A stretch of 51,414 nt of DNA from a virus (lineage: Duplodnaviria; Caudoviricetes). Below, in pieces: positions 26,619 through 43,406 of the stretch. Every line of letters begins with the position of its first letter. Position 1 is the stretch's first letter. The stretch covers positions 1-51,414 of IMG/VR virus record IMGVR_UViG_3300008448_000127, one strand, 5' to 3'. The position numbers were made by a program, and so were the translations under genes. The notes beneath the pieces are model-generated. The model was not told the origin of the DNA. It made no database searches and saw only the letters and a program-made list of their open reading frames with translations.

Positions 26619-27196
26619 AGTGTCTCATATACCAAAAAGCTGAGGCATATCGTCGGGTGCTGGATTGGCGGTTGTGGTGGTACTGCCGGGAACACAACAC
26701 TTGACATGCCGGGAAGAAAGCAAACAGTACCGGCTAGAAGGATAGGATTGCAACTGACTCGTGTCAAGAGACTGTCAGACGGAATGAAATCAGGGCTTGG
26801 AGTTCCGACACTGGCACAGCGTCTGAATTCAATACCCCATCCATTTCCTGGTGTACATTGGATGGCAACTTGAAAACAAAAGTACCAAGTTGCTGTCATT
26901 GTCGAATTTGTGGGGTCAAGCCAAACGCATGTTGCATTGATTGTACCAAGACCCCAACGACCATTAGCTACGAGAGTAACCGTAGTGCTACCTTCGAAGC
27001 AACCGTACGTGGTGTCATCGGTCGTCATTTCAATTGTTAAAGTATTTGGTAGTGGATTCTCTGACGGGTCTCCTGTACAAGTTGGTTCTTCGGCAGAGTG
27101 AACCGACCCCGGATAACAACGACTAGGGCAGCATGTCGCTTCTTCTCCACAACCGCAACCGCACAGCAATATCGCTTCAAGTTGGTTTGATGGCAT
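26615..27196 (-). CDS. Cys-rich putative tail-tip/virion protein
   Basis: Starts MPSNQLEAILLCGCGCG; third gene downstream of the tape measure gene. Confidence 0.65.
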   Translation of the reverse strand: MPSNQLEAILLCGCGCGEEATCCPSRCYPGSVHSAEEPTCTGDPSENPLPNTLTIEMTTDDTTYGCFEGSTTVTLVANGRWGLGTINATCVWLDPTNSTMTATWYFCFQVAIQCTPGNGWGIEFRRCASVGTPSPDFIPSDSLLTRVSCNPILLAGTVCFLPGMSSVVFPAVPPQPPIQHPTICLSFLVYETL

Positions 27197-28170
27197 CAGG
27201 GGGTTCCTGTACCTACAGGGCAAGATGTTTGGACACCAGGACAGTACACACCTTCTGTAATATACGTGTCGCAGCGAACCAGTTTTACTGACTGTGCACC
27301 ATTCAATGTGCAGCACTCGTAAAATCTGTCTGGGATTCCAATGAGATCGTAGCCACCTGATACAATCATCCATACGGATACTTGAGGTATCGCAGTGCCC
27401 GTACCAGTTCCGGGTACAGGAGCAGGATCGTCTGCAGTATCGCCTAAATCGGATACGATGATGTGTGCACCGATCGGCAGTAATAGTTTTCTGGGATCAT
27501 AGACGTAAATTAAGCTACCGTCACCATCAACAACAGTTCGTGTTGGTTGGACAAGCGTACCACATACGGCATCGCCGTCGTTAGCAGCCGTACCGACAGG
27601 TAGCTCATTCTCTCCGTACAGCAAACTGCACAGGTCGCATTCGTTCGTCAGGGCACTGCCCGTACCAACACCAGATATAGTGCCTGTACCAGTTTCTGAG
27701 AAGGAAGGGATTGTGAACCGTGGGTTGGCAGACAGATTTGCGGTATAGTAACCATTACCCAGGCACTGAGTAATGCGGGCGTGACGGTTGTTGCCTGACG
27801 CAGCGGTTATAGGTGACCATTCTGACTCGTTTCGTATAACAAGTATTACGTCGTTAATTGCTGCAGAAAAGGTTGGGAATCGGTTTGTTACATCGATCAA
27901 ACCTTCATCTGTTGTGGAGTCCTCCATATCAAGGCTGTCGGTTAAGACAGGCTGAAGGTATCGGAGGATTCTACCTTGTGCAGTAGTGTAACCTGTACGT
28001 GGATCAGTCGCAGCAGCGAGACTCTCTGTAAGAACCACATAGTACAAGTCGTTATGGATTGTTTTGTCACGGGTGTTGTCCGCTAGAGGTTGTCGGTACC
28101 TATTACCTAAGACACGGCGACCGATCTCGATCGTGTCTTCCAGCGTAAAGATTCCAAGTTCTCTGGTCAT
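27196..28170 (-). CDS. Putative minor tail protein with GTGTG motifs
   Basis: Position after the tape measure gene; Thr/Gly-rich with a Cys-rich C-terminus. Confidence 0.7.
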   Translation of the reverse strand: MTRELGIFTLEDTIEIGRRVLGNRYRQPLADNTRDKTIHNDLYYVVLTESLAAATDPRTGYTTAQGRILRYLQPVLTDSLDMEDSTTDEGLIDVTNRFPTFSAAINDVILVIRNESEWSPITAASGNNRHARITQCLGNGYYTANLSANPRFTIPSFSETGTGTISGVGTGSALTNECDLCSLLYGENELPVGTAANDGDAVCGTLVQPTRTVVDGDGSLIYVYDPRKLLLPIGAHIIVSDLGDTADDPAPVPGTGTGTAIPQVSVWMIVSGGYDLIGIPDRFYECCTLNGAQSVKLVRCDTYITEGVYCPGVQTSCPVGTGTP

Positions 28171-29258
28171 GGTATTGCCAAACTGTGAGTTTCAATAAAC
28201 CCTGTAAGGTCAGCTTCTTCTGGGAATAACGGATCAATAATGAAGAAATCTGTTTCTGGATCGGCAGCGTTCATCAAATTGAAAGGGTATGCTGTTCCAT
28301 CTGGTTGCAGCGGCCAAGGTGCTTTAGCTAAGTCACCACGGTTATTGATGGGGATTGGTCCGTAGGCTACAGCACCACCTGCCCCCGCAACGAGTTGCTG
28401 CGTGTGCATCGACACTCTTCGATTGGCTTCTCTAAAGTAACCTTCTGGTGATTCTACAGCGGTTCTATCATCAACAACAAACACAGCAGTTATGGTGATG
28501 TAATGCCATGTTCCGTTTGATCCTGCTTGCCCTGCAGGGATAGCAACTCCTGTAGTACGATAATTCTCAACGCAGCTTATTGATTCACAGAACACATGCT
28601 TGATTGGGGCATCGTAAAAGTCGTCTACAGCTGCTTCATTTATTTTTCCAATATAGGGGTCGATATCGGTCTTATAGTTGAATCCTGTCGCTTGGACATT
28701 CCAAGTAAACTGGTGTACCTGCAACTGTAGAGGAAGGTCAATGCCTTCAGTTAGTGGTAGGAAGTTAGCGTGTACAAGTGGGGCACCTGTTGAGTCCTTG
28801 TACCGTGTTGTTGAGACTTGTCTTGTAGACGAGTGCCAAATAACAGGTTCTTCCCACGGGCGTATTACAACTTGCTTAGGAGTTGCTGTTCCTGTCGAGT
28901 CGATGACTCTTGTAGGTACCCTTCCAATGGCTCCTGGAGGAGAAGTATTAAGGAAGTTTGCTGTCTCGTACTCAAGCTCAACAAGCCAGTAGGGCCTTCC
29001 TTCTGTATGTTCTTTAACAGAGGGTGCTGACTTCAGAATTAAATCGGATCTTTCTGGGTGGTAACTTAATCCGATTGTAAAGGTAGGCTCTGGAGTCGTA
29101 CCGAAATCGTACGCAGGTAAAGCTGCCTGAACGTCTACGATGTCCTCCAGTGGTGAGTCCATCTCGATTAGGCAGGTTTCACGAATACGAACAACGCCCC
29201 AAGTCGCAGATAGCACTTGCGGTTGCAGTAAAAACCCATGAATAGTTTTAAGGCCCAC
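28167..29258 (-). CDS. Putative distal tail/hub protein
   Basis: Immediately downstream of the tape measure gene; 363 aa; GTG start with GGAGG RBS. Confidence 0.7.
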   Translation of the reverse strand: MGLKTIHGFLLQPQVLSATWGVVRIRETCLIEMDSPLEDIVDVQAALPAYDFGTTPEPTFTIGLSYHPERSDLILKSAPSVKEHTEGRPYWLVELEYETANFLNTSPPGAIGRVPTRVIDSTGTATPKQVVIRPWEEPVIWHSSTRQVSTTRYKDSTGAPLVHANFLPLTEGIDLPLQLQVHQFTWNVQATGFNYKTDIDPYIGKINEAAVDDFYDAPIKHVFCESISCVENYRTTGVAIPAGQAGSNGTWHYITITAVFVVDDRTAVESPEGYFREANRRVSMHTQQLVAGAGGAVAYGPIPINNRGDLAKAPWPLQPDGTAYPFNLMNAADPETDFFIIDPLFPEEADLTGFIETHSLAIP

Positions 29259-29259
29259 A

Positions 29260-31755
29260 CTAACCTCCTGGGACTACGTTGACTCGTGGTGCCTGAGCAC
29301 CCTGCTCCACGAGTTGCCGTTGGATTTCTATGAGAGTATCGAGTCGTTCAACTTGGGCATCACGCGGACCAAATTGTGCTTTGAACATCTGCTCAAATGC
29401 TTTAGCTTGAGCTTCGTACGTGTTTTGCTCCAGACCTTGTGCGTACCCTGGTTTCCTAAGTTGATCGATCTCTTTTTGCACTTGCTCCAACTGCTGGTTC
29501 ATAAACTCTTGAGTAAACGCTTCTTCGCTTATCGGCAGTTGAGGCCCAACAAATGCAGTATCGATTCCAGAGAACGCAGCTTGCTCGTCTCTGATACGCT
29601 TCATTTCCCGTTCCGCTTCAGACATACGCATACTCTCAAGTTCTTCACGCATACGCTGTTGGCGTTCGCGGGTTGCCATACCTTCAATCTCCACTGCTCT
29701 TTGGTTAGCAAGGAGTAATTGGTTGGCAATCTCCAGTTGCTTCTTACGCTCCTCAGTCATATGCTCTTGTTGACTGATTAGCTCTTCAGCAATCTTCTTT
29801 TGCAACTCCATGTTTTCTTGCAGGTCAGTAACATTAGGATGGTATATCTCCTGTAGAGCATTGAGGAGATCAGGATCTGTCAGTTTGCCCTTAAGATTTT
29901 CAAGAGCACTGACATCCATTACCTGGTTGTAATCGCCAAAAAAGTCAGAGATACCTTTGTCTGGTCCAGTCATAATGTCGTGCATGTTGCGAAGTCTTGC
30001 CAACATTACTTGCTCGTTACCGGCAATGGCGGCTTCTCTTGCAGCAGCATACTGAGCCTTAAGTTCTATCGCAGCTTCTTTTTGACCTTGTGTGCCATCT
30101 ATGATCATATTATTGATGCGACGCTGAAAGTCAAATACAGCTTCCTGACCTCCCATAAGGCCTTCAAAGTATGCAGCATTGGCACCTTCACGTTTCATTT
30201 CCTCTTGAGCCATGATCTCATCGAGGCGTGCTTGTTCCTTTTTTAACTCTGTTATTTTTTGTTCAACCTCTTCGCGAGACTGCATATCCTGAATAGCGGT
30301 TGCTTCGTCTTCGAATTGATGACGTAGTTTAGTCATCTCTCCAAGACGTTCTGTTTCTTTACGAAACTCTTCTAATGCTTTGGTTGCTTTATCTGCAGCA
30401 TCTTCAGTGTCCATCAGGTAACGAGTAAGCAAGCCGATGCCAATAAGAACTGCAGGTACACCAAATCCAGCAAGGGCACCCATTGCAGCGTTAGCACCAA
30501 ATACAGATCGAGCAACCATAGATAGGTTGTTCGATGCTGACATGAGTGCCATGTTCATGCCGCCGCCCATGCTAAGAACTTGGATGAAGTCTTCAGCAGC
30601 ATAGGATGCTTGAGTAATAGCAGCACCAGCACCACCAAAACCGCCAGCAGATGCCTGAGCAATTCTGGTAGAGTAAGCTACGGCATCAGCATGTTCCTGC
30701 TGGGTGATGATGTTTCTGGAGAGCATTGCGTCATACTCAACCAGTCGAGCAGTGTGTAATTGCTCTGCTGTCATTAGTTGACGACGAAGACCGATAGCCT
30801 CACGTTCAAGACGGTTCGCTTCTTCCACATCATCTACGTACGCTCGTACTGTTCTCAGAGTATTTTCTGAGACAGGAATACGTCCGCCAACTGTTGAAGC
30901 CTGCATGTCTCCAGCATTCGCACCGGCACGGAATCGGGCAGCATCTTCTTCAATACGCTTTTGTGCTTTGAAGGCAGCAGCTACACGTCGATTCTGCTGC
31001 TCAGTGTAATGCTCAGCTTCTTCTTCCGTTAAGCGTTGCTGCTCAACTGCAGCACGAGCACGGGCCTGAATATCTTCCCGCAATGCCTTAATACGATCGG
31101 CTTCCTGTTGCTCCTGGTACTTGCGTTCCTGTTCGGTAACGCGAAGTGTGTGAGCAGCAGACTCTGATGCCAGGCGATCCTTCTCAGCGTAGAAAGCTTC
31201 CAGTGTTTGGCGTTGCTGGTTAACAATACGGTTCCAAGCAGCGTCCATGAAGCCTTGCGTTTCCGCATCAGCTTTATTGACAGCAGCTTCTTCAGCAGCG
31301 TCCTGTGCAGCGTAGCGAGCAACAACGGCTTCCTGCAGCATTCTGGAGAATGCAATCTGCTTTTGCGTCTCTTCCTCGATCGCAGTTGTTAGCCTGCGTT
31401 CGTTAGATACTGCTTCGTTGTACGTATTGATGTTAGCCTGCTGAACAGCAACAGCAGTCTCACGAGCAATTCGTTCACGGGTAGCAGCTTCTTCCTGAAG
31501 GACATTCTCCTTCTGCTGTTCCAGTTTGTACCAAGCCTGGAACTCACGTTCATTTTCGGTAGCATACCATTTGTTGAACTTCTCTTCAGCTTCCATTTTT
31601 TGCTGAAGGTTGATTTCACGCTCTACTGCTTCGGCTTTAGCGATCTCACGCTGTGACTGAAGAATGACGGCATTGGCTGCAGCCATACCTGTAGCAACGC
31701 CGGTAGCGTCAACGCCAAGTTTGATCGCGAAATCATTGATGCTTTCGCTTGCCAT
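29260..31755 (-). CDS. Tail tape measure protein
   Basis: 831 aa, Ala/Glu/Gln helical composition with a hydrophobic Gly/Ala segment; follows the frameshifted chaperone pair. Confidence 0.88.
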   Translation of the reverse strand: MASESINDFAIKLGVDATGVATGMAAANAVILQSQREIAKAEAVEREINLQQKMEAEEKFNKWYATENEREFQAWYKLEQQKENVLQEEAATRERIARETAVAVQQANINTYNEAVSNERRLTTAIEEETQKQIAFSRMLQEAVVARYAAQDAAEEAAVNKADAETQGFMDAAWNRIVNQQRQTLEAFYAEKDRLASESAAHTLRVTEQERKYQEQQEADRIKALREDIQARARAAVEQQRLTEEEAEHYTEQQNRRVAAAFKAQKRIEEDAARFRAGANAGDMQASTVGGRIPVSENTLRTVRAYVDDVEEANRLEREAIGLRRQLMTAEQLHTARLVEYDAMLSRNIITQQEHADAVAYSTRIAQASAGGFGGAGAAITQASYAAEDFIQVLSMGGGMNMALMSASNNLSMVARSVFGANAAMGALAGFGVPAVLIGIGLLTRYLMDTEDAADKATKALEEFRKETERLGEMTKLRHQFEDEATAIQDMQSREEVEQKITELKKEQARLDEIMAQEEMKREGANAAYFEGLMGGQEAVFDFQRRINNMIIDGTQGQKEAAIELKAQYAAAREAAIAGNEQVMLARLRNMHDIMTGPDKGISDFFGDYNQVMDVSALENLKGKLTDPDLLNALQEIYHPNVTDLQENMELQKKIAEELISQQEHMTEERKKQLEIANQLLLANQRAVEIEGMATRERQQRMREELESMRMSEAEREMKRIRDEQAAFSGIDTAFVGPQLPISEEAFTQEFMNQQLEQVQKEIDQLRKPGYAQGLEQNTYEAQAKAFEQMFKAQFGPRDAQVERLDTLIEIQRQLVEQGAQAPRVNVVPGG

Positions 31756-32101
31756 TCTTCAGTTCCTTCGCGGCGTTCAGTATAGCAAAAAACCCGCTTC
31801 TGATAGCAGAGACGGGTTTCTGGACGAGATGAGATAGACGGAAGGTGTAGTCACGCTGAGTAGTCCACTGCTTTAACATCCACGGTTTGACTGTGGACTT
31901 CGGAGCAGAGACCTTCATGTGATGGGCAAGAGCCATTGCTTGTAAGTCATCGTTCATTCCCCATCGGAACTCAGTCCAGAAGTGCCAGTGCTGATAGAAC
32001 TCATTCACTGGCAGTTCATCAATTTCAGCGAGTGACTTTCCCCAACGACTGCAGAGGAACAATTTGAACCACTGCGGGCCGTCAGGGGTTAGCCGTTTTT
32101 T
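31733..32101 (-). CDS. Tail assembly chaperone extension (gpT-like), expressed via -1 frameshift
   Basis: The -1 frame continues from the slippery site and lacks an independent RBS or ATG. Confidence 0.8.
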   Translation of the reverse strand, partial: KKRLTPDGPQWFKLFLCSRWGKSLAEIDELPVNEFYQHWHFWTEFRWGMNDDLQAMALAHHMKVSAPKSTVKPWMLKQWTTQRDYTFRLSHLVQKPVSAIRSGFFAILNAAKELKNGKRKHQ

Positions 32102-32511
32102 TCCGCTACATCGACCCACAACTGCTTGCGGATAATTCCCTGAAACTGTTCAAGCTGCGATGCTGTCAGGTTGTCAAGGAAGTAATCCAGTACACGAGTC
32201 AGATACGAACCGTCAAGGTCTTCGAGAGTCTGACGGATACTTACGTTTTCTTCGACAGTAATCGGCCAAACTGCTGGGTCGGTTTCATGGAGCGAGTTGA
32301 CCAACTGTGGAAGGAACGGTCTGCCGTTGTCGTGCAAGCAGATCAAGGTACGAAGACCGCTGAAGTACGAACCGCTGACACGACCTTCAGTGACCTGCGG
32401 TAGAGCCTGGAGAGCAATAGCAAATGCTGTTGCTGTACCTGCTGATGGCTCAACCAATTCAGCCGTTGAAGATTCTGGGACAGGAACTCGTTTAAGCGGG
32501 CGGAGCAGCAT
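32089..32511 (-). CDS. Tail assembly chaperone (gpG-like)
   Basis: Lies between tail tube and tape measure genes and ends at the slippery site. Confidence 0.8.
   Translation of the reverse strand: MLLRPLKRVPVPESSTAELVEPSAGTATAFAIALQALPQVTEGRVSGSYFSGLRTLICLHDNGRPFLPQLVNSLHETDPAVWPITVEENVSIRQTLEDLDGSYLTRVLDYFLDNLTASQLEQFQGIIRKQLWVDVAEKNG
32095..32102 (-). other. Programmed -1 ribosomal frameshift site A AAA AAC
   Basis: GAA AAA AAC GGC TAA at the 3' end of the chaperone gene; canonical lambda G/GT position. Confidence 0.85.
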
Positions 32512-32550
32512 GATTAGACCTTAATGAAAGAGGGTTGGGGGATAAAAGCT

Positions 32551-32578
32551 GACACCGTAAGCGAGTACCTACGGTGTC
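32551..32578 (-). terminator. Hairpin/terminator after the major tail gene
   Basis: Stem GACACCGTA/TACGGTGTC followed by AGCTTTT. Confidence 0.55.
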
Positions 32579-32613
32579 GGTATCGTTTCCACGCTTGGTG
32601 GATCGACTCAGAA

Positions 32614-33123
32614 TTATACTGGAGCAGTTACGTCAATACCACTCAATCGGAATACAATTTCTGCCATGCTTCGGGCAGCGTTACCTTCTGAGAGAACAGT
32701 ACCCTGTGGTGTGAACTTGTTGACGTAGCCTGTCAGCACAAGGATCGGGCCAGTTGTTTCACCAGATGCAGCAGGGAATTCAACGAGCAAGTTACCAGAG
32801 CGACCGTCGAAGAACGCGGCCATCTCTCGACCGCCCCAAGTGTCATCTGGATCCCAATCGACAGTGAAAGTGACAGTACCCAGATCAACAATGGCACCGG
32901 CACGGAATGAACGGATCAGGTTACCCCAAGCGTCCAGAGTCGTGTTGGAGCAAGTCGTCTCAACGTCACCACGAGTGAACCCGGACCAGTTAGGCCCATC
33001 GGTTACACAGGCGTAGACATCGCTTGCTGCGTCCACAGCGTCAGGTGCAGCACCTGTACCTGTTGGGACAGTGGTCTGTTCATACCACTTGATCTTAATT
33101 CTTGATGCGTCTCGATTTGACAT
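32614..33123 (-). CDS. Major tail (tube) protein
   Basis: Pattern GFTRGDVETT...GAIVDLGTVTFTVDWDP...GYVNKF...FRLSG; GGAGG RBS. Confidence 0.85.
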   Translation of the reverse strand: MSNRDASRIKIKWYEQTTVPTGTGAAPDAVDAASDVYACVTDGPNWSGFTRGDVETTCSNTTLDAWGNLIRSFRAGAIVDLGTVTFTVDWDPDDTWGGREMAAFFDGRSGNLLVEFPAASGETTGPILVLTGYVNKFTPQGTVLSEGNAARSMAEIVFRLSGIDVTAPV

Positions 33124-33132
33124 GTTTACCTC

Positions 33133-33600
33133 CTAACAAGTGGCCTTACCAGAAAACGACAGGACAAGCATTGTCAAATCAGGATTGGACTGTCCTGTTT
33201 TTAACGACGAAACTTCTTCCTGCGAATCCAGTCGAAGGAAGTTTATGAAGACAGAAGTTCCGGTCACAGTGTAGGAGGTGAGTTGTGTTCGTCGCCCAGC
33301 AACGATAGGTTGCAGAACTGCGAGCACACTTGTGACCAGTGCTTTCCTCTGAGTATTAGAATGGGCAACACAGGCTACGTCAAGAGAAAACTCCATAACT
33401 TCCAAGCCATTAGCTTCCGCCATACCTTCTGAGGAATGAAGAGGCGTGCATTCGCTAATGTCGAAGTAGACGTAACCGGCTGATGTTGTCTTGAGATCGA
33501 GAGCGGGTAGGAAGTCGATCTTGCTGACAGTAATGGAAGTTCCCAAAGCTGTTGTGAGTAGCTTTTGGATTCCGTCATCGATTGGGTATGGTGAACTCAT
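33133..33600 (-). CDS. Tail terminator/completion protein
   Basis: Synteny and size (155 aa). Confidence 0.65.
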   Translation of the reverse strand: MSSPYPIDDGIQKLLTTALGTSITVSKIDFLPALDLKTTSAGYVYFDISECTPLHSSEGMAEANGLEVMEFSLDVACVAHSNTQRKALVTSVLAVLQPIVAGRRTQLTSYTVTGTSVFINFLRLDSQEEVSSLKTGQSNPDLTMLVLSFSGKATC

Positions 33601-34247
33601 CCGAATACCCTTTTGAAGTGTTCCAGGATTTTAGCACGGAATATCTGTTGGGCTTCAGCCTGAGTCTCTGAGCGTACTTGCTCAATGATGTTATGACCTT
33701 TGAACGATCTTGTTCGCCTTCCTGCCCACGGTCCTTTACGGTCCGTAGCACTGAACCCATAGTTCAACAGGTGCCAGTACTTGTTAGGCCAACGAAGACG
33801 AAGTGTTCCTGTTTTCTTTCTGAGGGTAGACTTAACTTCTTTGCGAGGGTATCGCTTACTGAAGACTTCTGCACCGTTACGCAAACGACGTTTAATGCCG
33901 AACGATACTTGGCGTTGTGCTGGAGCGTAGTCTGGCGATGTTCCAGGAGCAATTGCTTCTTTCAGCTTACGGTTAACTCCGACGATGCCGTAGAACACGT
34001 ACTCGTAGGACTTGTGTTGCTTGTACTTGGAAGTAATCGCTCTTGCTGTCGCACCTGACGATTGACGACTGTTAGTTGCAAGGCCAAGTACTTTAGCCTT
34101 TAATGAATTCTTTGCGGGTAACATGGCACTACGAATTGCTTCGCGAATGACATGCTTCTTCATCCTGTCCAACAGCTTAGGGAACCCGTCACGTATTTCC
34201 GTGGGGATAACGAACTGCATTACAATTTGAGTTCGCTTCTTTGCCAT
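33597..34247 (-). CDS. HK97 gp10-like neck protein
   Basis: Basic protein with SGATARAI and KYWHLLNYG; synteny. Confidence 0.7.
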   Translation of the reverse strand: MAKKRTQIVMQFVIPTEIRDGFPKLLDRMKKHVIREAIRSAMLPAKNSLKAKVLGLATNSRQSSGATARAITSKYKQHKSYEYVFYGIVGVNRKLKEAIAPGTSPDYAPAQRQVSFGIKRRLRNGAEVFSKRYPRKEVKSTLRKKTGTLRLRWPNKYWHLLNYGFSATDRKGPWAGRRTRSFKGHNIIEQVRSETQAEAQQIFRAKILEHFKRVFG

Positions 34248-34642
34248 TAGATTAGAGAAGGGATCAATTGAATTGTGATGGGTTGTGCCACGTTGTCGAT
34301 GACCATGATCTCAATCTTCTTCCTGTCGCCCCAAGGGTCTGTTGCTGGTCCGATGACCGCGAACACTTTCTGGAGAGAAGGAACTACACAGAACATTCCG
34401 CCAGTGACTGTGGCGACCAGCGAGCACCATTGACCAACCAAATGGAATCGTTGCTCAGATTGAACTCGGTTATCAGACTGGATCTCGATCGGTGTGCGTG
34501 GTCGCTCCATGGAAAATGGACCACGATACACCAAGTCGAATGATTGTTCCAGTTCACCGCTCGCTGTTGCAGTTGTGGACGGTACCCAGAACTCGCAGGT
34601 ATAGCGAAGATTCGGGCGTGACTTACGGTTGTATTTGTTCAT
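34247..34642 (-). CDS. Head closure/head-tail adaptor
   Basis: Synteny; LR...F.....ASGE pattern. Confidence 0.7.
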   Translation of the reverse strand: MNKYNRKSRPNLRYTCEFWVPSTTATASGELEQSFDLVYRGPFSMERPRTPIEIQSDNRVQSEQRFHLVGQWCSLVATVTGGMFCVVPSLQKVFAVIGPATDPWGDRKKIEIMVIDNVAQPITIQLIPSLI

Positions 34643-34907: not shown

Positions 34908-34908
34908 G

Positions 34909-35582: not shown

Positions 35583-35713
35583 AAAAACAAACCGCAGTCC
35601 AGCCACCCCCGAAACTGAACTGCGGCTGTCACCACCGAAGTGGATATTAAAACCCGCTGAGAGGCACGTCATTCTGGAGACACTTTATCTGTCAGAAGAG
35701 AGGTGCAGCGGGT
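35583..35713 (-). terminator. Tandem hairpins and terminator after the capsid genes
   Basis: ACCCGCTG/CAGCGGGT plus TTT, a CCAC-TTCG-GTGG tetraloop, and GCCGCAGTTCAGT/GCTGGACTGCGGT plus TTGTTTTT. Confidence 0.7.
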
Positions 35714-35719
35714 AAGTTA

Positions 35720-36151
35720 CTACGTCAACGCTCCAGTACCAGTTGCGGTCAGGTCTCCATACTGATTAAACTTGGTTACCTGCACTGCAGCCTTAACGGT
35801 GTCTGTGTTGGTGCCCGTCAGGCGGAAGACCGTTGACAGAAACACTACGCCTGCTTGGTCCTGAGCGTACGATACTTCTTCGGAGTCAACTTCGACGGAC
35901 ATGTCGTCAGTGTGCTGGTTGAACACAACAGTCTTAATGGTCGTGAAGCTGGACGTACCAGCGAGCACAGTTGAACCGACGACAGTAACCGTAAGTGATC
36001 CGGTCAGGGCAGCATCGTTCAGAACCAGCATCGCTTTGTCGAACGGACCAGCGATAACGTAGGCGTTACCGATTGAGCCGTTCATGGTGAGTGTCCCGAG
36101 AGCCTTGATCAGACTCTTGCTGGACAAATGAGTAAACTTCTGAGTAGCCAT
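35720..36151 (-). CDS. Putative head decoration/cement protein
   Basis: Directly after the capsid gene; beta-rich 143 aa; GAGG RBS. Confidence 0.65.
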   Translation of the reverse strand: MATQKFTHLSSKSLIKALGTLTMNGSIGNAYVIAGPFDKAMLVLNDAALTGSLTVTVVGSTVLAGTSSFTTIKTVVFNQHTDDMSVEVDSEEVSYAQDQAGVVFLSTVFRLTGTNTDTVKAAVQVTKFNQYGDLTATGTGALT

Positions 36152-36246
36152 TATAGAATCCTCACAAGGAATTTCTGGGAAGGAAGACAAAGCTGATGGG
36201 CGGGGTTCAGGCGGCACTTACTACCCGCCCATCAAACCTGCATGAA

Positions 36247-37707
36247 TTATGCAGTCGTCTTGGACAGTACGACGAATGGGGACAGAGTCAGACCCGCCTT
36301 GGCAGGGTACATAACGTCTCTCCACCATGGGCGAGCATCGTCGAAGGACGTGAACAAGAAGACTTCTTCTCGCTCCAGGAATCGTACGTGGATGCTGCGA
36401 GTCAGAGTACCAGTTCCACGCTCACCGTACAACATCTGAGTGGGGTTAACGCAAGCGAGGAAGTTATCGTTCCATTCGCTGATTGCGTTTCCGTCCTGAC
36501 CGCTGGTGATACCGTTCATGTACTCGGTCCAGATAATTGGACGACCCAGCAGGAAGTCAGGTCGGTCACCAGACTCAGACGGATTGAACAACTTCACCAG
36601 ACCAGCGTTGTTTGGTGACTCGATGTGCAGAGTAGCGATCGTAGGATACAAGTCCTGAGGCGCCAACCACACAGCGTTGTCGTAACCCCAGACACGCTGA
36701 CGCATCTTGAGTACGTTGGTACCGTTGACAATGACGGAAGTTGACTGGCCGTTCTCTCGGAGGACTGTGAGCAGCGATGGGTTGGCACTGTTCAACATGC
36801 CGAGTGGACGACCGATACCGTTACCATTCAACAGTTCGTTGATGCGGTAAGATCGAGCTTCCTGACGAAGACCAGTATCAATCAGAGCAGCAATGGACAG
36901 CGGGCTGTCGGACATCAATTGGTTGGTTGCTGCAGCAGCACCATTCAGTTCATGTGCCTTCAGACTGATGACTTCCATCTCTGACTTGCTCAGAGTAGGA
37001 GCCTGGGTTTCCTTACCTCGGTAGACTCGGAACCCACCAGTCACTGAGGTACGGTGGTCTCTGTCAACACGAGCAGGAATATCGACGACTGGAGCGGTCA
37101 TCGGGATACGGGTCAGGCGGCTGGTCAACTGGTCAGCTTCTGGTTCCATCTGCATAATGCTGTTGATGAAACCGCGAGGTACAGTGACTCCGAGAGATTC
37201 CCAATTCGCCTTGGAGAACTCGTCAGAACCAACTGCGTCCATGACCACTGCTTTCAGGCGAGGATCAATAGCATCAGGGTTGTGCTTGTTCTTGTAAGCG
37301 TTGATGACCGCACCGAGGTAATCCTGCTGGTTACGAAAACCGAACTTCTCTTTGTCATCTTCCCATGCAGGGCGAACAGTAACACCCCTGGAGAAGTCAA
37401 AGGTTAGCCCACTTGTGGCGTTGGCGATACGAGACGTTGCGAGCAGGGCAGCTTTTCGTTCTGCCAAACCGACGTTCGTTTTGCTCATAGCATTGACGAC
37501 TACTTCGAGTCGGTCAACAGCTTCTGAGTACTGTGTCAGTTCGTTTTGAGCCAGCTTATCGCCCTTGGCTTCAAAACCTTCCGTGAGAGTAATCAGGCGA
37601 GTTCGCTCGTCCTGAAGTTGGTTGACGGTCATCTTGGACACGTCTTCGTGTTTGACAGGTGTATCGTTAAAAGCACGGTACACGCGAGTAGCGATGGCAG
37701 AAGCCAT
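36247..37707 (-). CDS. Major capsid protein (HK97 fold) with N-terminal scaffold-like region
   Basis: AGGAGG RBS; motifs GVTVP, LLNGNGIGRPLGML, LLGRPIIWTE, SPFVVL. Confidence 0.93.
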   Translation of the reverse strand: MASAIATRVYRAFNDTPVKHEDVSKMTVNQLQDERTRLITLTEGFEAKGDKLAQNELTQYSEAVDRLEVVVNAMSKTNVGLAERKAALLATSRIANATSGLTFDFSRGVTVRPAWEDDKEKFGFRNQQDYLGAVINAYKNKHNPDAIDPRLKAVVMDAVGSDEFSKANWESLGVTVPRGFINSIMQMEPEADQLTSRLTRIPMTAPVVDIPARVDRDHRTSVTGGFRVYRGKETQAPTLSKSEMEVISLKAHELNGAAAATNQLMSDSPLSIAALIDTGLRQEARSYRINELLNGNGIGRPLGMLNSANPSLLTVLRENGQSTSVIVNGTNVLKMRQRVWGYDNAVWLAPQDLYPTIATLHIESPNNAGLVKLFNPSESGDRPDFLLGRPIIWTEYMNGITSGQDGNAISEWNDNFLACVNPTQMLYGERGTGTLTRSIHVRFLEREEVFLFTSFDDARPWWRDVMYPAKAGLTLSPFVVLSKTTA

Positions 37708-37788
37708 GACAAAACCTCCTGTGATGTTGAGTGGCATCTGGCTGCTGCTTATATGCGTTGCTGTGGGCATAGCCGTTGACTATTGAGT

Positions 37789-37817
37789 AATGTAAAGGGG
37801 CAGATTTGAAATGTCAA
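37789..37817 (-). promoter_or_regulatory. Sigma70-type promoter TTGACA-N17-TACATT upstream of the capsid gene
   Basis: Intergenic and near consensus. Confidence 0.7.
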
Positions 37818-37818
37818 A

Positions 37819-38538
37819 CTAATTTAGACATTTTTTGCGTAGATTAAGAGCCTTAAGTTTTAGGGCTGTCAAGTCTGGAGAAACAATTTGTACGTCGGAT
37901 TTGTTCCGTACAATTTCTGGGATAGAAAGACAGTTAAGGATTGCTGTGTCGGGGCGAGCGTTGCGGACAGAATTGAACAGACCTTTAGCCACTGCTTCAG
38001 GTGCGGACATGTAAGTTTCCGCTTCCATCAGATTCTTCACGTCGTCAGCTTTCATAGGCGTTCTGGTAGTGAAGATATCAACGATACTGTCTCGGTGGGA
38101 CTCCCAGCGGTTGCGGACGTTATCTACTTCCTTGAGCGAGTCGATCTTGGCGTACAAATAAGGGTTGTGCATCATGAACAGACCACCATTGCAGATTTGT
38201 CTGTCTTCACCAGCAAGAGCCAGCCAACCCGCAGAACTGAAAGCGTATCCATCTACGATAGTTGTGACCTTACCCTTGTGTTCAAGCAATCGGTTGTAAA
38301 TCGCCAGAGCAGACCCAACTTCACCACCAGATGAGTTGATGCGTACGTTGAGGTCGGCAGGAGCGTCTTTCATGAAGTCCATGACTTCTGCAGGAGTAAC
38401 CGAAGTGTCACCTTCAAACCATTTATGAGGCATGATGATATCATAGATCATCAATTCGTTAGCTTGGTTGAAGGTGACTTTGCTTTCCAGTACTTCACCA
38501 GAAGGCAACTGCTTACGATTCAGTACAAGTGATTTCAT
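37819..38538 (-). CDS. ClpP-like head maturation protease
   Basis: Motifs RINSSGGEV, DGYAFSSA, MMHNP, ETYMSAPEAVAKG. Confidence 0.93.
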   Translation of the reverse strand: MKSLVLNRKQLPSGEVLESKVTFNQANELMIYDIIMPHKWFEGDTSVTPAEVMDFMKDAPADLNVRINSSGGEVGSALAIYNRLLEHKGKVTTIVDGYAFSSAGWLALAGEDRQICNGGLFMMHNPYLYAKIDSLKEVDNVRNRWESHRDSIVDIFTTRTPMKADDVKNLMEAETYMSAPEAVAKGLFNSVRNARPDTAILNCLSIPEIVRNKSDVQIVSPDLTALKLKALNLRKKCLN

Positions 38539-40321
38539 TTTCAATTCCTTCAGGTAATTTCTGGGAAGACAACCATTCAGGGATGAGATCGTCGAGAGGC
38601 TTGTTGTTGACCTGTATCAAGTCTTTCCATGAGAACAATTGATCCTGCAGCATGACGTGAAACTTACCGTTCAGAGCATAAAACTCCTGAACAGCAGATT
38701 CGTAGTCATCAGGTCGGGACTGCTTCTTTTGATCCAGTACACGGGTTTCGTACTGCTTCAAGCCATTTACGACATTCATGAAAGCGTTACGAATCCGCTT
38801 GTCAATGTTTGCCTTGGACGGTGATTTGTCCATCTTACCCGATGTTGGTTCAGACTTAGCAGCAGCCTTTTCCTGGAGTGCTTCATGTTCTTCACCCGAC
38901 ACCATTCCTTCATTGGCTTTGACAGTAGACTCTGTTTGAGCCTCGGTCATCTTGTTAGCCAACTCAGCACCTTTCTCAAGGAGTAACGAGTGGTCAACAG
39001 TCATGATGTTAACTGGAACGTACCTTGGATTGGCTGCTGGGTCGGACGGATCAATGTGTAGACCGAGCAAAGCACGCCCTTCGACGCGGTCGATCATACC
39101 GATCTCAAACAGGTTTCTAAGAGAAGTAGTAAACTTGTCGATAACGTTGCGGTAGAGGTACAGGGTCTCGAACTCAAACCCAAACAACATCTGCGAAGGA
39201 AGAGGTAGGAGTTCTTGACGAAACTGAGACTGGAGGCGTGACAAGAATGGACCAATACCTGTTTGGACGAACAGGGCAATTGCTTGAGCTAAGTCTGTAC
39301 CGCCAGCGTCTGTACCCATGTAGCTATGGAGCAGGACAGGAGGTACATTAAGGCCACGAGCAACATCTTCAACGCTGAATGCACGAGTTTCGATAAACTG
39401 AAGTTGCTGCATCGGAGTACCGACGTTAACAGGCTTCAAGTTCTGCTCAAGAATACGTGTACGAAACAATGCGTCGAGTGAATCGTTCGGGTTCTCTTCG
39501 AAGGAGGCCTCAAGGCGTTTAAGCACTTCTGGTGCAAGACGATGCTCAGTTGTCAGCCATGTCTGTGACGCATGACCTTTGGTGTAGTACTTACGTGCGT
39601 ATTCTTCAGCAGCAGAGTACAACTCGTTGCTTTTTGTGGACATGGCGATAAAGCCGTGGGCACGGTGAAACTCAGAGTCAAGTACCTTACCTTTGAAGTG
39701 GGCTATTTCACTACGCAGGAGTAACAGAGGACGGGCGTCAACGTCACGGGCACGATCACCCGTATCGATGCGGTAGACAAGTTCTCCCGGTACAGTTCTA
39801 CGCCCGTTGGATAGCTGATCCCCACCTTGTGAGCGGTAGATGTTACCTCTTGGAATGCGTGTTGGATGGACATAGTATAGCCTGGATAATCTACCCTGAG
39901 CATCGTTCTCTCGGATGAAGTAACAGTTACCATCCATCAGTACGTCATAGATGATCGTAATCAGTGCATCGTCTGCACTGAGTTCTGGGTGGTAGTAATG
40001 CGAGAATATGCGGGACGCTGGATGGTCAGTGGTTGCAACGATACGCTGCTTAGCACCAGTACCTGCTTCCAGTGCGTACATACGTCTAGGCAGAGAACCA
40101 ATCATCCCTGTGTAGATGTCAATTGCACATTTGACAGCAGAGAGTTTTAGAGCGGCGTCTGCGTTGTTGGCGTACATGTGCTCGTGGTTCAAAACCCCGA
40201 ACAAGTCTTTCCAGGACAGTGCAGATGCCTGGTTCAACACGTCATGGACGATGTCCACAAACTTTGAGATTGCGGAACGTGACGGTTCTTGCTGTTGCTT
40301 TTTCCATGGTAGCCACGCCAT
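38513..40321 (-). CDS. Portal protein (HK97 family) with C-terminal extension
   Basis: Motifs SAVKCAI, DGNCY, QFIETRAFSVEDVARGLNVPP; located between terL and the protease. Confidence 0.92.
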   Translation of the reverse strand: MAWLPWKKQQQEPSRSAISKFVDIVHDVLNQASALSWKDLFGVLNHEHMYANNADAALKLSAVKCAIDIYTGMIGSLPRRMYALEAGTGAKQRIVATTDHPASRIFSHYYHPELSADDALITIIYDVLMDGNCYFIRENDAQGRLSRLYYVHPTRIPRGNIYRSQGGDQLSNGRRTVPGELVYRIDTGDRARDVDARPLLLLRSEIAHFKGKVLDSEFHRAHGFIAMSTKSNELYSAAEEYARKYYTKGHASQTWLTTEHRLAPEVLKRLEASFEENPNDSLDALFRTRILEQNLKPVNVGTPMQQLQFIETRAFSVEDVARGLNVPPVLLHSYMGTDAGGTDLAQAIALFVQTGIGPFLSRLQSQFRQELLPLPSQMLFGFEFETLYLYRNVIDKFTTSLRNLFEIGMIDRVEGRALLGLHIDPSDPAANPRYVPVNIMTVDHSLLLEKGAELANKMTEAQTESTVKANEGMVSGEEHEALQEKAAAKSEPTSGKMDKSPSKANIDKRIRNAFMNVVNGLKQYETRVLDQKKQSRPDDYESAVQEFYALNGKFHVMLQDQLFSWKDLIQVNNKPLDDLIPEWLSSQKLPEGIENEITCTES

Positions 40322-40322
40322 A

Positions 40323-42221
40323 TTATTGTGCCTTCAGTCCGCGAATGTCTGTGATCGTCTCAAACTCGGGGTAGAGCCATGCACCAATAGCCATGAGACC
40401 AGCAACAATCCCATCGATCTTATTAGTGGATTTTGACTTGTCGGGTCGTATTTGTCCATCCCGATTGGTCATAATTACAACATTTCCTACCATCCAGTCT
40501 AAGACAGGATGCCCACCATGACTAAATTGGTGATCTGTTACCATGGCTTCTGTGCGACGACATGGTTCATTCATACCGTTAAAGTTCTGAGGGTATTGTC
40601 TTGCAGGAAGACCATACTGATGAAGTGCTTTGTAGATGTACTCAACATTCCATCGGTCAAAGGCTATGCAGCGAACATCTCTGAAGTAAGTGAATAGGCC
40701 AGGGTGGTCATCTTTACCAATCATGGCATCAACGATGCCTTGCTGGTCAATTGTTTTGCCGGGAGACGTTGAGTTGATTAATCCAGCTTCCCACCAAATG
40801 TTGTACGGAAGGTTTTGTTCCTGTGAACGTTGATAGATCGATTCGGCTGGAACCCAACCCCAATGCAGCATGACACCGTACTTAGGGAACCACAAGTTAA
40901 CCGATGCGATGTCACTGACTACAGCATTATCGAATCCAGCGTAGCACTCTTCGTCTCTCAAGAACTCCATCTGCCGAATGTACCATGACCAGTACAGTTG
41001 GTACCGACCAATATAAACATCGACGGATGTCGATCCTCTAAACTTTTCTGAGGAAGCAATGTTATGCCACATCCAGTGACGTGACATCCACTCTTTGATC
41101 GCTTCTATTGACAGTAACGGAGTTTCAGGAGAAGCATTACCATTAGCCCAAACGTAAGAAGGAATCCATGCTGTTTCTGTTTTGGTTCTGATGTTGAGGT
41201 GAAGGCGTAGAAAACGATTCAGCTCAACAGGATTGTTAGCGGCATTACGGACGAGTCTCTGGAAGTAATCTCTGGTGATGGACTTACCATAATTAGGATT
41301 AGCTTTCATCCAGACCTTCTCTGAACGAAAGTCGTCAGACAGATCAGCCTCGTAGATCACCGGCAGGAATGTAGGCTCCCACTGACGATCTGTGGCTATT
41401 GCTTTGGCTTTTTCGTACAGAGTGTTACAAACAGATGGTCGATCGTAATCAGCCGTTGTCGTGTACACAATCAAAGGTTGGCGTCGTGCTCCAGTACCCG
41501 TGAGCATAACGTCAATGAGTTCACTGTTGGGGTGAGCGTGAACTTCATCAATGTACACAAAGTTTGGTGATAACCCGTGCTTAGTATCCGCTACTGACGA
41601 CAGTACCTTGTACATGGAGCCATCAGTGTGCTCAAAAGAACGAGTAGAGCGAAATACTTTCTTGTCTCGCAACCGTCCAATAAGCCTTGGGTTGTTCTCG
41701 ATCATGTACTGTGCGTGTCTAAAGTTGTTAGTAGCCTGCTCAATATCAGCAGCACAGCAAAATGATTGAGCACGTTTCTCCTTGTCAACGAAGAACATAA
41801 TTAAGGATATGATAGCCCCAAATGCCGTAGTTTTCCCGTTTTTTCGTGCTACAAATATGAAGCATTCTCGGTATCTGCGGTAGTCTGTACCTTCTTGTTT
41901 CCAGCAGAATAAGTTTGCGTAGATACAGGACTGCCATTCTTCGGGAATAAACGGAAGACCTGTACTTTCAGCTTCTGGGTAGCAACACTCGTTAACTATA
42001 AATGCAATAATACGATCCCATTCAGCACAGTCAAAGTAGTAACCTTTGGCTGAGACAAATGGATCATATAGCGGTAGTCCACGCAGAAAATCAACAGTCC
42101 TGACTTCTTTCCACTTCCAACCAACCAGTTTGTCATTTTCATACAAAGGTTCGGGAATGTTAAGTTTAGCAGGACCACGTATGTACGCTGACTCCGGTAT
42201 AGTTTCTAGTGGCAGGTCCAT
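40323..42221 (-). CDS. terL: Terminase large subunit
   Basis: Motifs ARKNGKT, YIDEVH, TTA, ANPNYG, FDRW, KIDGIVA. Confidence 0.96.
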   Translation of the reverse strand: MDLPLETIPESAYIRGPAKLNIPEPLYENDKLVGWKWKEVRTVDFLRGLPLYDPFVSAKGYYFDCAEWDRIIAFIVNECCYPEAESTGLPFIPEEWQSCIYANLFCWKQEGTDYRRYRECFIFVARKNGKTTAFGAIISLIMFFVDKEKRAQSFCCAADIEQATNNFRHAQYMIENNPRLIGRLRDKKVFRSTRSFEHTDGSMYKVLSSVADTKHGLSPNFVYIDEVHAHPNSELIDVMLTGTGARRQPLIVYTTTADYDRPSVCNTLYEKAKAIATDRQWEPTFLPVIYEADLSDDFRSEKVWMKANPNYGKSITRDYFQRLVRNAANNPVELNRFLRLHLNIRTKTETAWIPSYVWANGNASPETPLLSIEAIKEWMSRHWMWHNIASSEKFRGSTSVDVYIGRYQLYWSWYIRQMEFLRDEECYAGFDNAVVSDIASVNLWFPKYGVMLHWGWVPAESIYQRSQEQNLPYNIWWEAGLINSTSPGKTIDQQGIVDAMIGKDDHPGLFTYFRDVRCIAFDRWNVEYIYKALHQYGLPARQYPQNFNGMNEPCRRTEAMVTDHQFSHGGHPVLDWMVGNVVIMTNRDGQIRPDKSKSTNKIDGIVAGLMAIGAWLYPEFETITDIRGLKAQ

Positions 42222-42236
42222 GGGGATGGATCAGTT

Positions 42237-43406
42237 CTAGGTCTCGAACGTGATTGTGCCTGTTTCGAATGTCATCACTTCAGCATCTGTTCCAGTACCG
42301 ACATAAGGCCAAGTGAACGTGAGTAAACCTGTGTAGCGATACTTCACAAGCCCTTTGGCAGTTTCTGAGGAAGGAATCTCAATAAGGGCGTATGGTGCAT
42401 CTCCTGTACCTGTGCCTGGTGGATCAACAAAAACTGCTGTACCAGTAATTATGCGGGAAGATTCTGTGTCATTGGCACGTTTAATGACAAAGGTCGCTAT
42501 AGCGTCTGCAAAGTTCTTGTTACCTGCAGACGTTAGGGCTACTCCGTCCGTATCAACAATTGGTAGCTGAATACCCCGACCGATTGCATCTGTGTATGAG
42601 TCGCCTACCCTAAGTGTTTCTGGGAAGGAAGTAATGGTTCCTGGTTCCAGTACAGACGCTGCAAGTAGTTGGGTTGCACCGGCTGCAGTGCCAATCAAGT
42701 CTGTCTTAGCTTTTACTGCAAGAAGTGTTGCTTGTGAAGCATCACCTCCGCTGGACGGAGCGAGTTCAAGCATGTTGGCCGTAAACTGGTGGACCAACCC
42801 ATCTTGCACCAGACCCGTGTCGATCTTGTCGAGAATGGTTTTTGCTAGAGCGAGGTTTGCTGCAGTCGCAGGGGCGTAGTCAGGCTGCGTTGCGTCGAGC
42901 TTCACACGAGCATTGGAGTCCAGTTCCGCGTTTACTTTTTCTCCGAAAGTCCCGGCTGTGACGTGTCCAGATCGAGCCTCGTCCCAGACCGCGTCTGCAT
43001 TGGCTGCAGCAGTCGGTGGCGTTGTTGTGTTGGCTCCAAACGCTGCCGTCTGATAGTCCACGGTATCCAACTCAATATAGATATTTACCGGGACCATGTT
43101 CGCGGCCCCTCTCAACTGGATAGCACATTCGTTTCCGCCATCCAGAGCAGCATTCGGAATGCCGATTTCGTACCAGCCAGGCATGTTGGTATTGTCGACA
43201 GCGACGAATCCGCCGCTTGCCCACGTTCCGAGCGTTGCTGTAGCCAGAGTGATCTGTACTTCGTTGGACAGATCCCCCGCGAAGTAGTACGCAACCAGAC
43301 TGCTTGTGTTGTAAACAAGATTTGCCAATCCAGCCCCAACCGTACTGGTTGAATCAGCGATAAAGATCAGGCGACGAACTGAGGTAGAGCCTCGTTTAAG
43401 TTTCAT
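42237..43406 (-). CDS. Putative virion fibre/structural protein
   Basis: Ala/Thr/Gly-rich, with PGWYE, ADAVWDE and GTGTG motifs. Confidence 0.6.
   Translation of the reverse strand: MKLKRGSTSVRRLIFIADSTSTVGAGLANLVYNTSSLVAYYFAGDLSNEVQITLATATLGTWASGGFVAVDNTNMPGWYEIGIPNAALDGGNECAIQLRGAANMVPVNIYIELDTVDYQTAAFGANTTTPPTAAANADAVWDEARSGHVTAGTFGEKVNAELDSNARVKLDATQPDYAPATAANLALAKTILDKIDTGLVQDGLVHQFTANMLELAPSSGGDASQATLLAVKAKTDLIGTAAGATQLLAASVLEPGTITSFPETLRVGDSYTDAIGRGIQLPIVDTDGVALTSAGNKNFADAIATFVIKRANDTESSRIITGTAVFVDPPGTGTGDAPYALIEIPSSETAKGLVKYRYTGLLTFTWPYVGTGTDAEVMTFETGTITFET

Follow-up and report, generated by a model that had tools for sequence, protein, structure and literature searches.

Glycosylation of phage particle proteins is reported for mycobacteriophages only in the passages of PMC12619734 that deal with it, and it affects recognition of the virions there. 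In these cases, the transferases are encoded by the phages themselves and the glycans are attached to the C-terminal ends of capsid and tail tube subunits, as summarized in the pertinent passages of PMC12619734 and PMC13313380, both citing Freeman et al. 2023 (Cell Host Microbe). Here, we report on IMG/VR virus record IMGVR_UViG_3300008448_000127, the whole 51,414 bases of which are termed the window in the following. The record, estimated to be 98% complete, represents nearly the whole genome of an uncultivated siphovirus-like phage, for which no near-identical DNA was found in the phage collection. Its virion proteins contain short stretches of alternating glycine and threonine, (GT)n, and a glycan island (21334-26448) is located directly downstream of its tail genes and includes the gene for a protein with a glycosyltransferase domain of the GT-A fold. 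We see about an even chance that the (GT)n stretches are O-glycosylation tags, and the word tag is used for them as a candidate designation.

As far as the mycobacteriophage system is portrayed in the sources cited, the window resembles it in that tailed phages encode glycosyltransferases and methyltransferases of their own. Furthermore, the C-terminal glycans found there have a counterpart in the C-terminal tags, i.e. predicted sites, of the tail tip and head decoration proteins. On the other hand, the capsid tag is internal here, the phage lineage and probably also the host group differ, and the enzyme belongs to a GT-A family without Pfam model. The proposed acceptor is an alternating (GT)n motif, residing mainly on tail tip and fibers. 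The present case would represent mycobacteriophage-like virion glycosylation in a different lineage, with an unnamed GT-A family and a defined acceptor motif.

A second system that invites comparison is BclA from the Bacillus exosporium, which carries glycosylated collagen-like Gly-X-Thr repeats and relies on genes of a deoxy-amino-sugar pathway. In both cases Thr stands beside Gly in a repetitive exposed region as O-glycan acceptor, albeit only as a candidate in the phage proteins. BclA differs by its period of three and its collagen triple helix, whereas the phage tags have a period of two and are mostly four to nine residues long in the wider set of loci analyzed below. The period-2 alternation rules out that the tags are collagen-like G-X-Y repeats. 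Literature on Gly-Thr tags in phage proteins was not found in full text, while the supplements of Freeman et al. 2023 may list relevant glycopeptides. The word 'phage' is absent from a review on viral O-glycosylation (PMC11139210).

Gly-Thr stretches in the virion proteins of the window

We defined a run as a maximal alternating Gly/Thr stretch of at least four residues and derived chance expectation from 1000 within-protein shuffles. The virion module, consisting of 17 open reading frames (ORFs) from 27196 to 44266 with 5,014 aa and excluding TerL, contains eight runs compared to a shuffle mean of 0.41, and none of the 1000 shuffles reaches eight. The same applies to the tripeptide GTG, which occurs 12 times where 2.35 occurrences are expected (0/1000 shuffles reach 12). 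When the two richest proteins are removed, three runs are left against 0.21 expected, a number reached in 3 of 1000 shuffles. Among the XYXY tetrapeptides of the virion module, GT is the most common (12), followed by AT (3). The remaining 49 ORFs (11,237 aa) contribute a single run that is located in TerL and corresponds to chance level, as 261 of 1000 shuffles reach one. Alternating Gly-Thr stretches are truly over-represented in the virion proteins. The original prediction, which had described the motif as recurrent in virion proteins and rare elsewhere, is borne out in both respects and all peptides quoted in it were found in translated minus-strand ORFs. The tagged region reaches further than had been assigned, its last tagged gene extending to 43406.

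It could be argued that the count merely mirrors the composition of Gly- and Thr-rich structural proteins, and the two richest ones are indeed high in both residues (10.2% + 11.7% and 9.5% + 12.6%, respectively). However, the shuffles keep this composition and yet never arrive at the observed number, and the sites are positionally conserved as detailed below. Shuffles and alignments refute a chance or composition effect, and we attribute practically no probability to it. Synonymous codons vary among sites as well as among homologs. The motif therefore exists at the protein level, just as originally proposed, and a DNA-level repeat as its cause is ruled out for the window and its relatives.

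The last gene of the tail module encodes a tail-distal protein, referred to as tip protein, the tags of which (Table 1) are part of the peptides ETGTGTISGVGTGS, VPGTGTGTAIP and the C-terminal VGTGTP. In an alignment of 39 homologs sharing 36-93% identity, residues G256, T257, G258 and T259 are invariant in 39/39 sequences though the lengths of the surrounding loop vary, and run lengths vary by insertions and deletions. The residue that would offer the acceptor hydroxyl at the tip sites, Thr, is invariant or nearly so. Database searches yielded 80 tip homologs. All 41 homologs with at least 270 aa carry at least two runs, and CPGTG(T/S) forms the C-terminal end of nearly all of them; among shorter homologs, only 2/39 carry any run, one of which is a fragmentary long form. 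The AlphaFold2 model based on the 39-row alignment (mean pLDDT 75.6) consists of two beta-rich domains joined by a Gly/Thr linker. Residues 159-176, comprising the first two tags, constitute this coil linker and have pLDDT values below 50. The tag at 254-259 is coil between strands 236-247 and 263-272 (block pLDDT 59) and the C-terminal tag is unstructured (pLDDT 47 in the last block), all four sites being placed in coil with block pLDDT of 37-59. Such a placement in low-confidence coil fits exposed and flexible sites. The tip protein has no Pfam or PHROG match, and Foldseek returned no PDB match for its model at E<=0.001, only weak OB-fold-like rows. In a more distant relative (G001, 97% complete) the tip protein can be aligned over its first 133 residues only, and the unrelated C-terminal half of the G001 protein contains five runs of at least four residues plus nine GTG tripeptides.

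The tip protein is also rich in cysteine, with nine invariant cysteines including a CC pair. Extreme expansions occur in proteins of the tip family: L174:7910-9238 features 22 tandem TGTGS units, L146:9104-9976 features 14 TGTG[S/E] units and L106:6662-7537 ends with a C-terminal (TG)9T tail. Codons vary between units in nine of the TGTGS units of L174.

The location of the tip tags bears on the main alternative, namely that the (GT)n stretches simply act as flexible linkers, hinges or tails, an unmodified low-complexity 'dialect' of this lineage, and that the island acts elsewhere, be it on other Ser/Thr sites, on the host envelope or on a small molecule. We regard this alternative as rather unlikely, though it is the most serious one. 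Just like the Gly-rich low-complexity linkers of phage fibers, the tags are located in linkers and loops, vary in length and exhibit low predicted order, and the first two tip sites lie exactly within the inter-domain linker. A linker does not need invariance, however, and GTGT is fixed in 39/39 tip homologs. Unlike the fiber linkers, the tags are invariant at fixed positions, Thr-specific and often terminal: 23 of the 283 runs in the wider set of loci are found within five residues of the C-terminus, where there is nothing to link. In addition, single short tags reside in loops of single-domain proteins, as exemplified by the capsid loop and by a family of approximately 140 aa in which a single loop (RLSRNLxxEY followed by GTGTGT) is conserved. 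The original prediction had seen the motif often in Pro-flanked loops or at termini. This view is supported with regard to predicted coil, linkers and termini but not with regard to proline, which precedes only 25/283 runs.

Apart from the tip protein, tags are present in further virion proteins, for which we compared five related loci found with the tip protein and stretches fetched from six related contigs (G001-G004, G041 and G042). The fiber-like protein contains an N-terminal domain (residues 1-138) and a C-terminal domain bearing two tags, and both sites (DPPGTGT and GTGTD) are kept in all six contigs. Its N-terminal domain was found in 75 loci, about 18 of which share 73-89% identity and differ in the C-terminal parts, suggesting that a conserved anchor is combined with distal parts that can be exchanged. 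The site close to the C-terminus of the putative decoration protein is kept as TPTGTGVTA in G002, G003, G004, G041 and G042, and the partial homolog from G001 (L102:7-372) holds TGTGT. In the capsid protein, the tag loop sits between conserved YLxG and SxHVR blocks. GTGT is kept there in G002-G004 and in G041, while G001 has GTGN at this place and G042 has lost the site. None of the 136 distant capsid representatives having that loop contains GTGT or TGTG, and judging from this comparison the capsid tag is a lineage-specific insertion into a variable loop. The aligned place of the weak site in 28167-29258 reads PGTGQP or PGTGEP in relatives, and TGTG is present in 3/9 members of this protein family within the loci containing the GT-A gene. 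The names tail tube and decoration protein, already used in the original prediction, can be kept as putative ones derived from gene order. The notion of a system that coats head, tail tube and tip has to be narrowed because capsid, decoration and tube proteins contain only one site each.

The GT-A-fold protein and the glycan island

The candidate writer is a protein of two parts. The N-terminal region of about 215 aa is lineage-specific and characterized by a PCSxCK motif, while the C-terminal part of about 225 aa represents the GT-A-fold domain. Most of the 495 database homologs match the C-terminal half alone, at about 48-50% identity. In alignment A3, which covers the domain of about 225 residues, the motifs VTTVPxR, FQDD and NPSLVQHTG (PSLxQH) stand out. 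Residues F298, Q299, D300 and D301 are invariant in a 27-row alignment (A7), and QDD, which qualifies as a DxD-type metal/nucleotide-binding motif, is present in 80/80 viral homologs. At the sequence level, the domain does not match any Pfam family at E<=0.01, with only noise at E<=1 across 20 members, and its profile does not match any PDB chain at E<=10. Single-sequence PDB searches with 25123-26448 and 24047-25108 likewise gave only noise. The AlphaFold2 model of the domain (pLDDT 85, pTM 0.87) retrieves 97 PDB matches at E<=0.001 in Foldseek, with GT-A enzymes at the top (best E 2.3e-7). Mimivirus R655, human COLGALT1 and POMGnT1 are the best matches, LH3, GnT-I and GalNAc-T2 rank lower, and nucleotidyltransferases also appear lower in the list. 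Protein-glycosylating enzymes are among the matches. The domain shares with COLGALT1/GLT25D1, POMGnT1, GalNAc-T2 and Mimivirus R655 and R699 the predicted fold (E 2e-7 to 2e-4, TM ~0.55), the Asp-Asp metal-binding-type motif (QDD) and a conserved C-terminal His motif; it differs from them by a sequence identity of 9-15% and by the lack of HMM matches to a PDB chain or Pfam. According to the model, the C-terminal domain of 25123-26448 is a GT-A fold, i.e. a single Rossmann-like nucleotide-sugar-binding domain. It constitutes an undescribed family that has neither a name nor a Pfam model.

A hydrophobic stretch of membrane-span strength is not present in any of the island proteins (KD19 maximum 1.26 in 25123-26448), and they should therefore act in the cytoplasm, where virions assemble. 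Complex prediction for the full GT-A protein and the tip protein yielded a score of 0.00, which counts neither for nor against binding. The N-terminal motif is conserved as PCSxCKxEIxRL at residues ~60-75. Distant homologs of the GT-A domain with 25-35% identity (L179-L204) are encoded on large chromosomal contigs of Planctomycetota and Verrucomicrobiota metagenome-assembled genomes (MAGs), and a Gemmatimonadota MAG fragment (L180) shows 46% identity over a partial match. The closest 'genome' matches (L176-L178) are phage contigs binned into MAGs. The distant cellular homologs may indicate which hosts this phage clade infects.

The island contains three putative transferase genes, of GT-A, GT-B-like and GT2 type, and the original statement that the tags adjoin glycosyltransferase genes is correct. 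The GT-B-like protein 24047-25108 matches no Pfam family at E<=0.01 (PF13524 unmatched) and no PDB sequence; its ESM Atlas neighbors are Glyco_trans_1_2/CgeB clusters (features 0.97-0.99, TM 0.67-0.79), a lead only, as predicted structures are compared with predicted ones. For 23137-24060, the PF04055 match (E 1.5e-5, 25.7 bits) stays under the cut-off of 29.5 and phrog_16999 is matched with E 8.7e-5, while CDLGCSNC near residue 33 fits the CxxxCxxC motif of radical SAM proteins. The GT2 protein 21927-22670 matches PF00535 (E 2e-7, 31.5 bits, cut-off 23.3) in profile positions 67-130 of 168 only, and phrog_8858 with E 1.3e-22. The gene for the HNH endonuclease is probably a mobile insertion outside the pathway. 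Relatives feature different gene arrangements. In G002-G004, the GT-A gene resides right after the tail genes and is followed by genes for a sugar C-methyltransferase, a 4,6-dehydratase, a GT-B enzyme and further proteins, among them GT2-like, GT-D-like, methyltransferase and DegT aminotransferase proteins; a similar island is present in the more distant locus L129. Of the island genes, G001 has those for the GT-A, GT-B-like and radical SAM proteins.

Given this equipment, it is conceivable that the tags are recognized by another enzyme (radical SAM, GT-B-like, GT2 or a host enzyme) and that the GT-A protein extends the glycan or acts elsewhere. The window offers three transferases plus a radical SAM gene as candidates, radical SAM homologs are present in 21-22 of 80 and GT-B-like ones in 15/80 loci of the wider set, and that set was selected by the GT-A domain, which makes the universality of GT-A there a matter of construction. 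Nevertheless, every other island gene occurs in a minority of tagged loci, with GT2 in 2/80. G001 retains tags without the GT2, HNH and methyltransferase genes, G002-G004 do so without radical SAM and CgeB-like genes, and the GT-A gene is the only island gene common to all tagged relatives examined. We consider recognition by another enzyme unlikely.

The position of the island between the replication and structural modules would also be compatible with glycosylation of phage DNA, in which case the protein motif would be unrelated to the island. Phage transferases that hypermodify DNA with glycans are the subject of work cited in passages of PMC12619734. However, the 98%-complete genome contains neither PF00303 (thymidylate-synthase-like hydroxymethylase) nor PF01702 (TGT/DpdA), the deoxy-amino-sugar pathway genes of the relatives are typical of surface glycans, and the enzyme gene follows tagged tail genes on the same strand in the 72 loci scored. 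DNA as the target of the island is thus highly improbable.

Tags and GT-A gene in viral loci

The single protein 25123-26448 did not retrieve any loci, but domain alignment A3 led to 80 viral loci with the enzyme gene in central position and up to 10 kb on each side. The N-terminal domain of the fiber-like protein served to retrieve 73 loci that we used as a control. The 80 GT-A loci contain 283 runs in 449,024 aa, with at least one run in 73/80, compared to 52 runs in 294,308 aa in the control loci. With one locus per 90%-identity enzyme cluster and two extreme loci dropped, 198 runs in 363,097 aa stand against 41 in 222,841 aa (controls L025-L081). Overall, runs are enriched 3- to 6.5-fold in GT-A loci, and runs of at least six residues are found 79 times there and not at all in the controls. 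A tagged locus is present in 59 of 65 enzyme clusters at 70% identity, and further glycan genes occur in 63/80 GT-A loci versus 1/71 control loci. The 283 runs are distributed over 51 protein families. A search with an alignment of the 140-aa family (A5) gave 38 loci, and wherever the family was accompanied by at least 6 kb of downstream sequence, the GT-A gene was present or the contig was already known for it, with the exception of L239.

The enrichment is specific for the Gly/Thr pair. GT alternation amounts to 13.4 per 10k aa in GT-A loci, where the next XYXY pair reaches 1.3. In the controls, GT, GS, AG and AT alternations are alike (1.9-2.6 per 10k aa), which speaks for plain linkers. 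Relative to these controls GT is raised 6.5-fold in GT-A loci, while GS (0.76 versus 2.08) and AG (1.16 versus 2.58) are not raised; such exclusive use of Thr argues against linkers. Same-strand ORFs upstream of the enzyme gene contain 248 runs, compared to 22.6 +/- 4.7 in 200 shuffles, again speaking against composition. Only nine runs lie downstream of the enzyme gene and none within it. The 2 kb immediately preceding the enzyme gene have a run density of 33 per 10k aa, which drops to 0.8 downstream on the same strand. Ordinary linkers do not account for this peak beside a transferase gene either.

Within the sub-clade of the window, a tagged long tip is accompanied by a GT-A protein with the long N-terminal region in 10/10 phages. 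L096, L097 and L098 combine a short untagged tip with a GT-A protein that is about 130 aa shorter at the N-terminus and lacks the PCSxCKxEIxRL region. L116 has both forms. L099 has the same short untagged tip, and its GT-A protein was not retrieved. The sequences compared are suggestive of a co-variation of tip and enzyme length, with at most two lineages involved.

A number of findings weigh against an O-glycosylation tag. A relative without glycosyltransferase was not found; whenever the contig of a relative includes this region, the GT-A gene is there. As the loci were selected by means of the enzyme and 65/80 share the tip protein family, common inheritance may be all that links enzyme and tags. 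Seven of the 80 GT-A loci contain no run within 10 kb even though QDD is intact, and L009 and L010 possess the GT-A domain and no run. Tags were not found near the distant cellular GT-A homologs (25-33% identity, mostly from Planctomycetota and Verrucomicrobiota MAGs). The tube site reads PTGSGAAP in G001-G004, a T/S interchange in which Ser counts against the tag, and the TerL site is not kept in the G041 and G042 homologs, where it reads TGTAAR; by this comparison the latter site is probably incidental. (GT)n is not restricted to phages of this kind. A DNA scan for (GT)4 in viral contigs gave at least 80 loci, and all of the following figures on it refer to the matches listed. The stretch is in frame in 61, a GT-A domain is found in none of the loci, and a homolog of any of 14 glycan-island proteins in one of 80. 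We also analyzed 35 whole contigs with (GT)n runs in ORFs of at least 150 aa, many of which are fragments, for the GT-A domain, PF00535 and PF00534. One contained a GT-A domain, two PF00535 and two PF00534, amounting to enzyme matches in 4/35 contigs altogether and in none of the five that are at least 81% complete. As (GT)n runs are common without these enzymes, the motif by itself is no indication that the phage encodes a writer, and elsewhere it is probably a linker independent of these enzymes.

These findings strengthen the linker alternative, for which the variable run lengths and the seven run-less GT-A loci can be put forward as well. Two of these seven and L098 could be inspected on whole contigs (G041, G042). 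The tip is short and untagged there but decoration and fiber tags are present, and at least those phages are hence not tag-less. Neighboring codons for the same residue are identical in 48% of cases in long runs elsewhere versus 33% in GT-A loci, which gives the former a more repeat-like character. Giant-virus MAG contigs (L249, L257 and L266, labelled GVMAG) likewise contain in-frame (GT)n runs, 10-17 residues in length.

Enrichment and conservation of the stretches, their prediction as coil, the enzyme fold and the co-location of both across many phages are the observations from which we infer Thr as the acceptor, this GT-A protein as the initiating enzyme and a role for the glycan. If the (GT)n stretches serve as O-glycosylation tags, the following course of events can be envisaged. 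Tags with n of about 2-3 would be displayed in linkers, surface loops and C-terminal tails of the tip, fiber-like, putative decoration and capsid proteins and, weakly, of the tube protein. In the cytoplasm of the infected cell, the GT-A enzyme would place the first sugar on the (GT)n threonines, and other transferases would then extend and decorate the glycan. Tail tip and fibers above all, but also single sites on head proteins, would leave the cell in O-glycosylated form. Possibly, the glycan serves shielding, stability or adsorption.

Gene arrangement of the window and implications

The minus-strand genes between ~44.3 and 27.2 kb make up a head-and-tail module that includes smaller head and tail genes in addition to those collected in Table 1. 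Replication genes are located beyond the island and encode a PD-(D/E)XK nuclease, AAA_24, DNA polymerase A and a primase. Between the island and these genes, 19242-20489 (phrog_5931) and 20577-21458 (no family) are situated, to which no function is assigned. Homologs are present in 14/80 and 22/80 GT-A loci, respectively, and both may belong to the island module. The putative tube gene and the tape-measure-sized ORF are separated by two small overlapping ORFs (32089-32511 and 31733-32119). Overlapping ORFs in such an arrangement are typical of tail assembly chaperones made via programmed frameshift. ORFs 26615-27373 and 27196-28170 overlap by about 178 bases, which renders the start of 26615-27373 uncertain. 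The protein encoded by the former is rich in cysteine, with CGCGCG and many further cysteines. TerL comprises 984-987 aa in G001:38977-41940 and G004:27035-29989 compared to 632 aa in the window, with ~500 residues aligned, and an insertion, e.g. an intein or a homing-endonuclease domain, is likely in both relatives.

Table 1. Virion genes, (GT)n sites and glycan-island genes of the window.
Feature	Position	Strand	Remarks
Protein matching 'virion structural protein' PHROG	43406-44266	-	
Fiber-like protein, 389 aa	42237..43406	-	no Pfam or PHROG match
Tag GTGTG in DPPGTGTGDAPY of fiber-like protein	42402..42416	-	PPGTGTGDAP
Tag GTGT of fiber-like protein	42288..42299	-	WPYVGTGTDAE
TerL, 632 aa	40323-42221	-	
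TGTG in TerL	41490..41501	-	LTGTGAR; outside the proposed system
Portal	38513-40321	-	
HK97-type major capsid protein	36247-37770	-	PF05065, E 3.5e-22
GTGT in capsid variable loop	36406..36417	-	RGTGTLT
Putative head decoration protein	35720-36217	-	name from gene order only; no PHROGs or Pfam match
TGTG of decoration protein	35732..35743	-	TATGTGALT; three residues before C-terminus
Putative tail tube protein	32614-33123	-	name from gene order only; no PHROGs or Pfam match
TGTG of putative tube protein	33052..33063	-	PTGTGAAP (VPTGTGAAP); near N-terminus
Tape-measure-sized ORF	29260-31755	-	
Tail-distal protein	28167-29258	-	
TGT of 28167-29258	28887..28895	-	DSTGTATP; weak site
Tail-distal (tip) protein, 324 aa	27196..28170	-	last gene of tail module, after tape-measure-sized ORF and 28167-29258
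Tip tag TGTGT, residues 160-164	27679..27693	-	inter-domain linker; T160, G161 nearly invariant
Tip tag GTG, residues 169-171	27658..27666	-	same inter-domain linker; G169 invariant, T170 and G171 nearly
Tip tag GTGTGT, residues 254-259	27394..27411	-	loop in C-terminal domain; G256-T259 invariant
Tip tag GTGT, residues 320-323	27202..27213	-	one residue before C-terminus; T321, G322 nearly invariant
GT-A-fold protein, 441 aa	25123..26448	-	candidate writer
GT-B-like, CgeB-like putative glycosyltransferase, 353 aa	24047..25108	-	homologs in 15/80 GT-A loci
Radical SAM-like protein, 307 aa	23137..24060	-	homologs in 21/80 GT-A loci
HNH endonuclease	22672..23136	-	inside island; phrog_374, E 1.1e-58; no homolog in G001
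GT2-family glycosyltransferase, 247 aa	21927..22670	-	homologs in 2/80 GT-A loci
Class I SAM methyltransferase (Methyltransf_24), 197 aa	21334..21927	-	PF13578, E 7.3e-17; homologs in 10/80 GT-A loci

Should the tags turn out to be linkers and nothing more, what remains is a peculiarity of composition in a single phage clade. A more far-reaching view, which we put forward tentatively and with slightly less confidence than the tag function as such, is that (GT)n is a portable O-glycosylation sequon read by an undescribed phage GT-A family, the gene for which resides at the end of the tail module. A large uncultivated siphovirus-like clade, with hosts probably among Planctomycetota, Verrucomicrobiota and their neighbors, would then build coats in which tail tips, fibers and head decorations bear unusual methylated deoxy-amino sugars. 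Gain, loss and expansion of tags, up to 22 tandem TGTGS units, would tune this coat. If the (GT)n tags are acceptor sites, virion glycosylation would extend to a large and diverse group of environmental phages, and a simple sequence rule would predict glycosylated phage proteins from genomes. A function would be provided for a conserved enzyme domain that has 495 homologs and no family name, and the glyco-engineering of phage particles or other proteins could make use of a compact pair of writer and tag.

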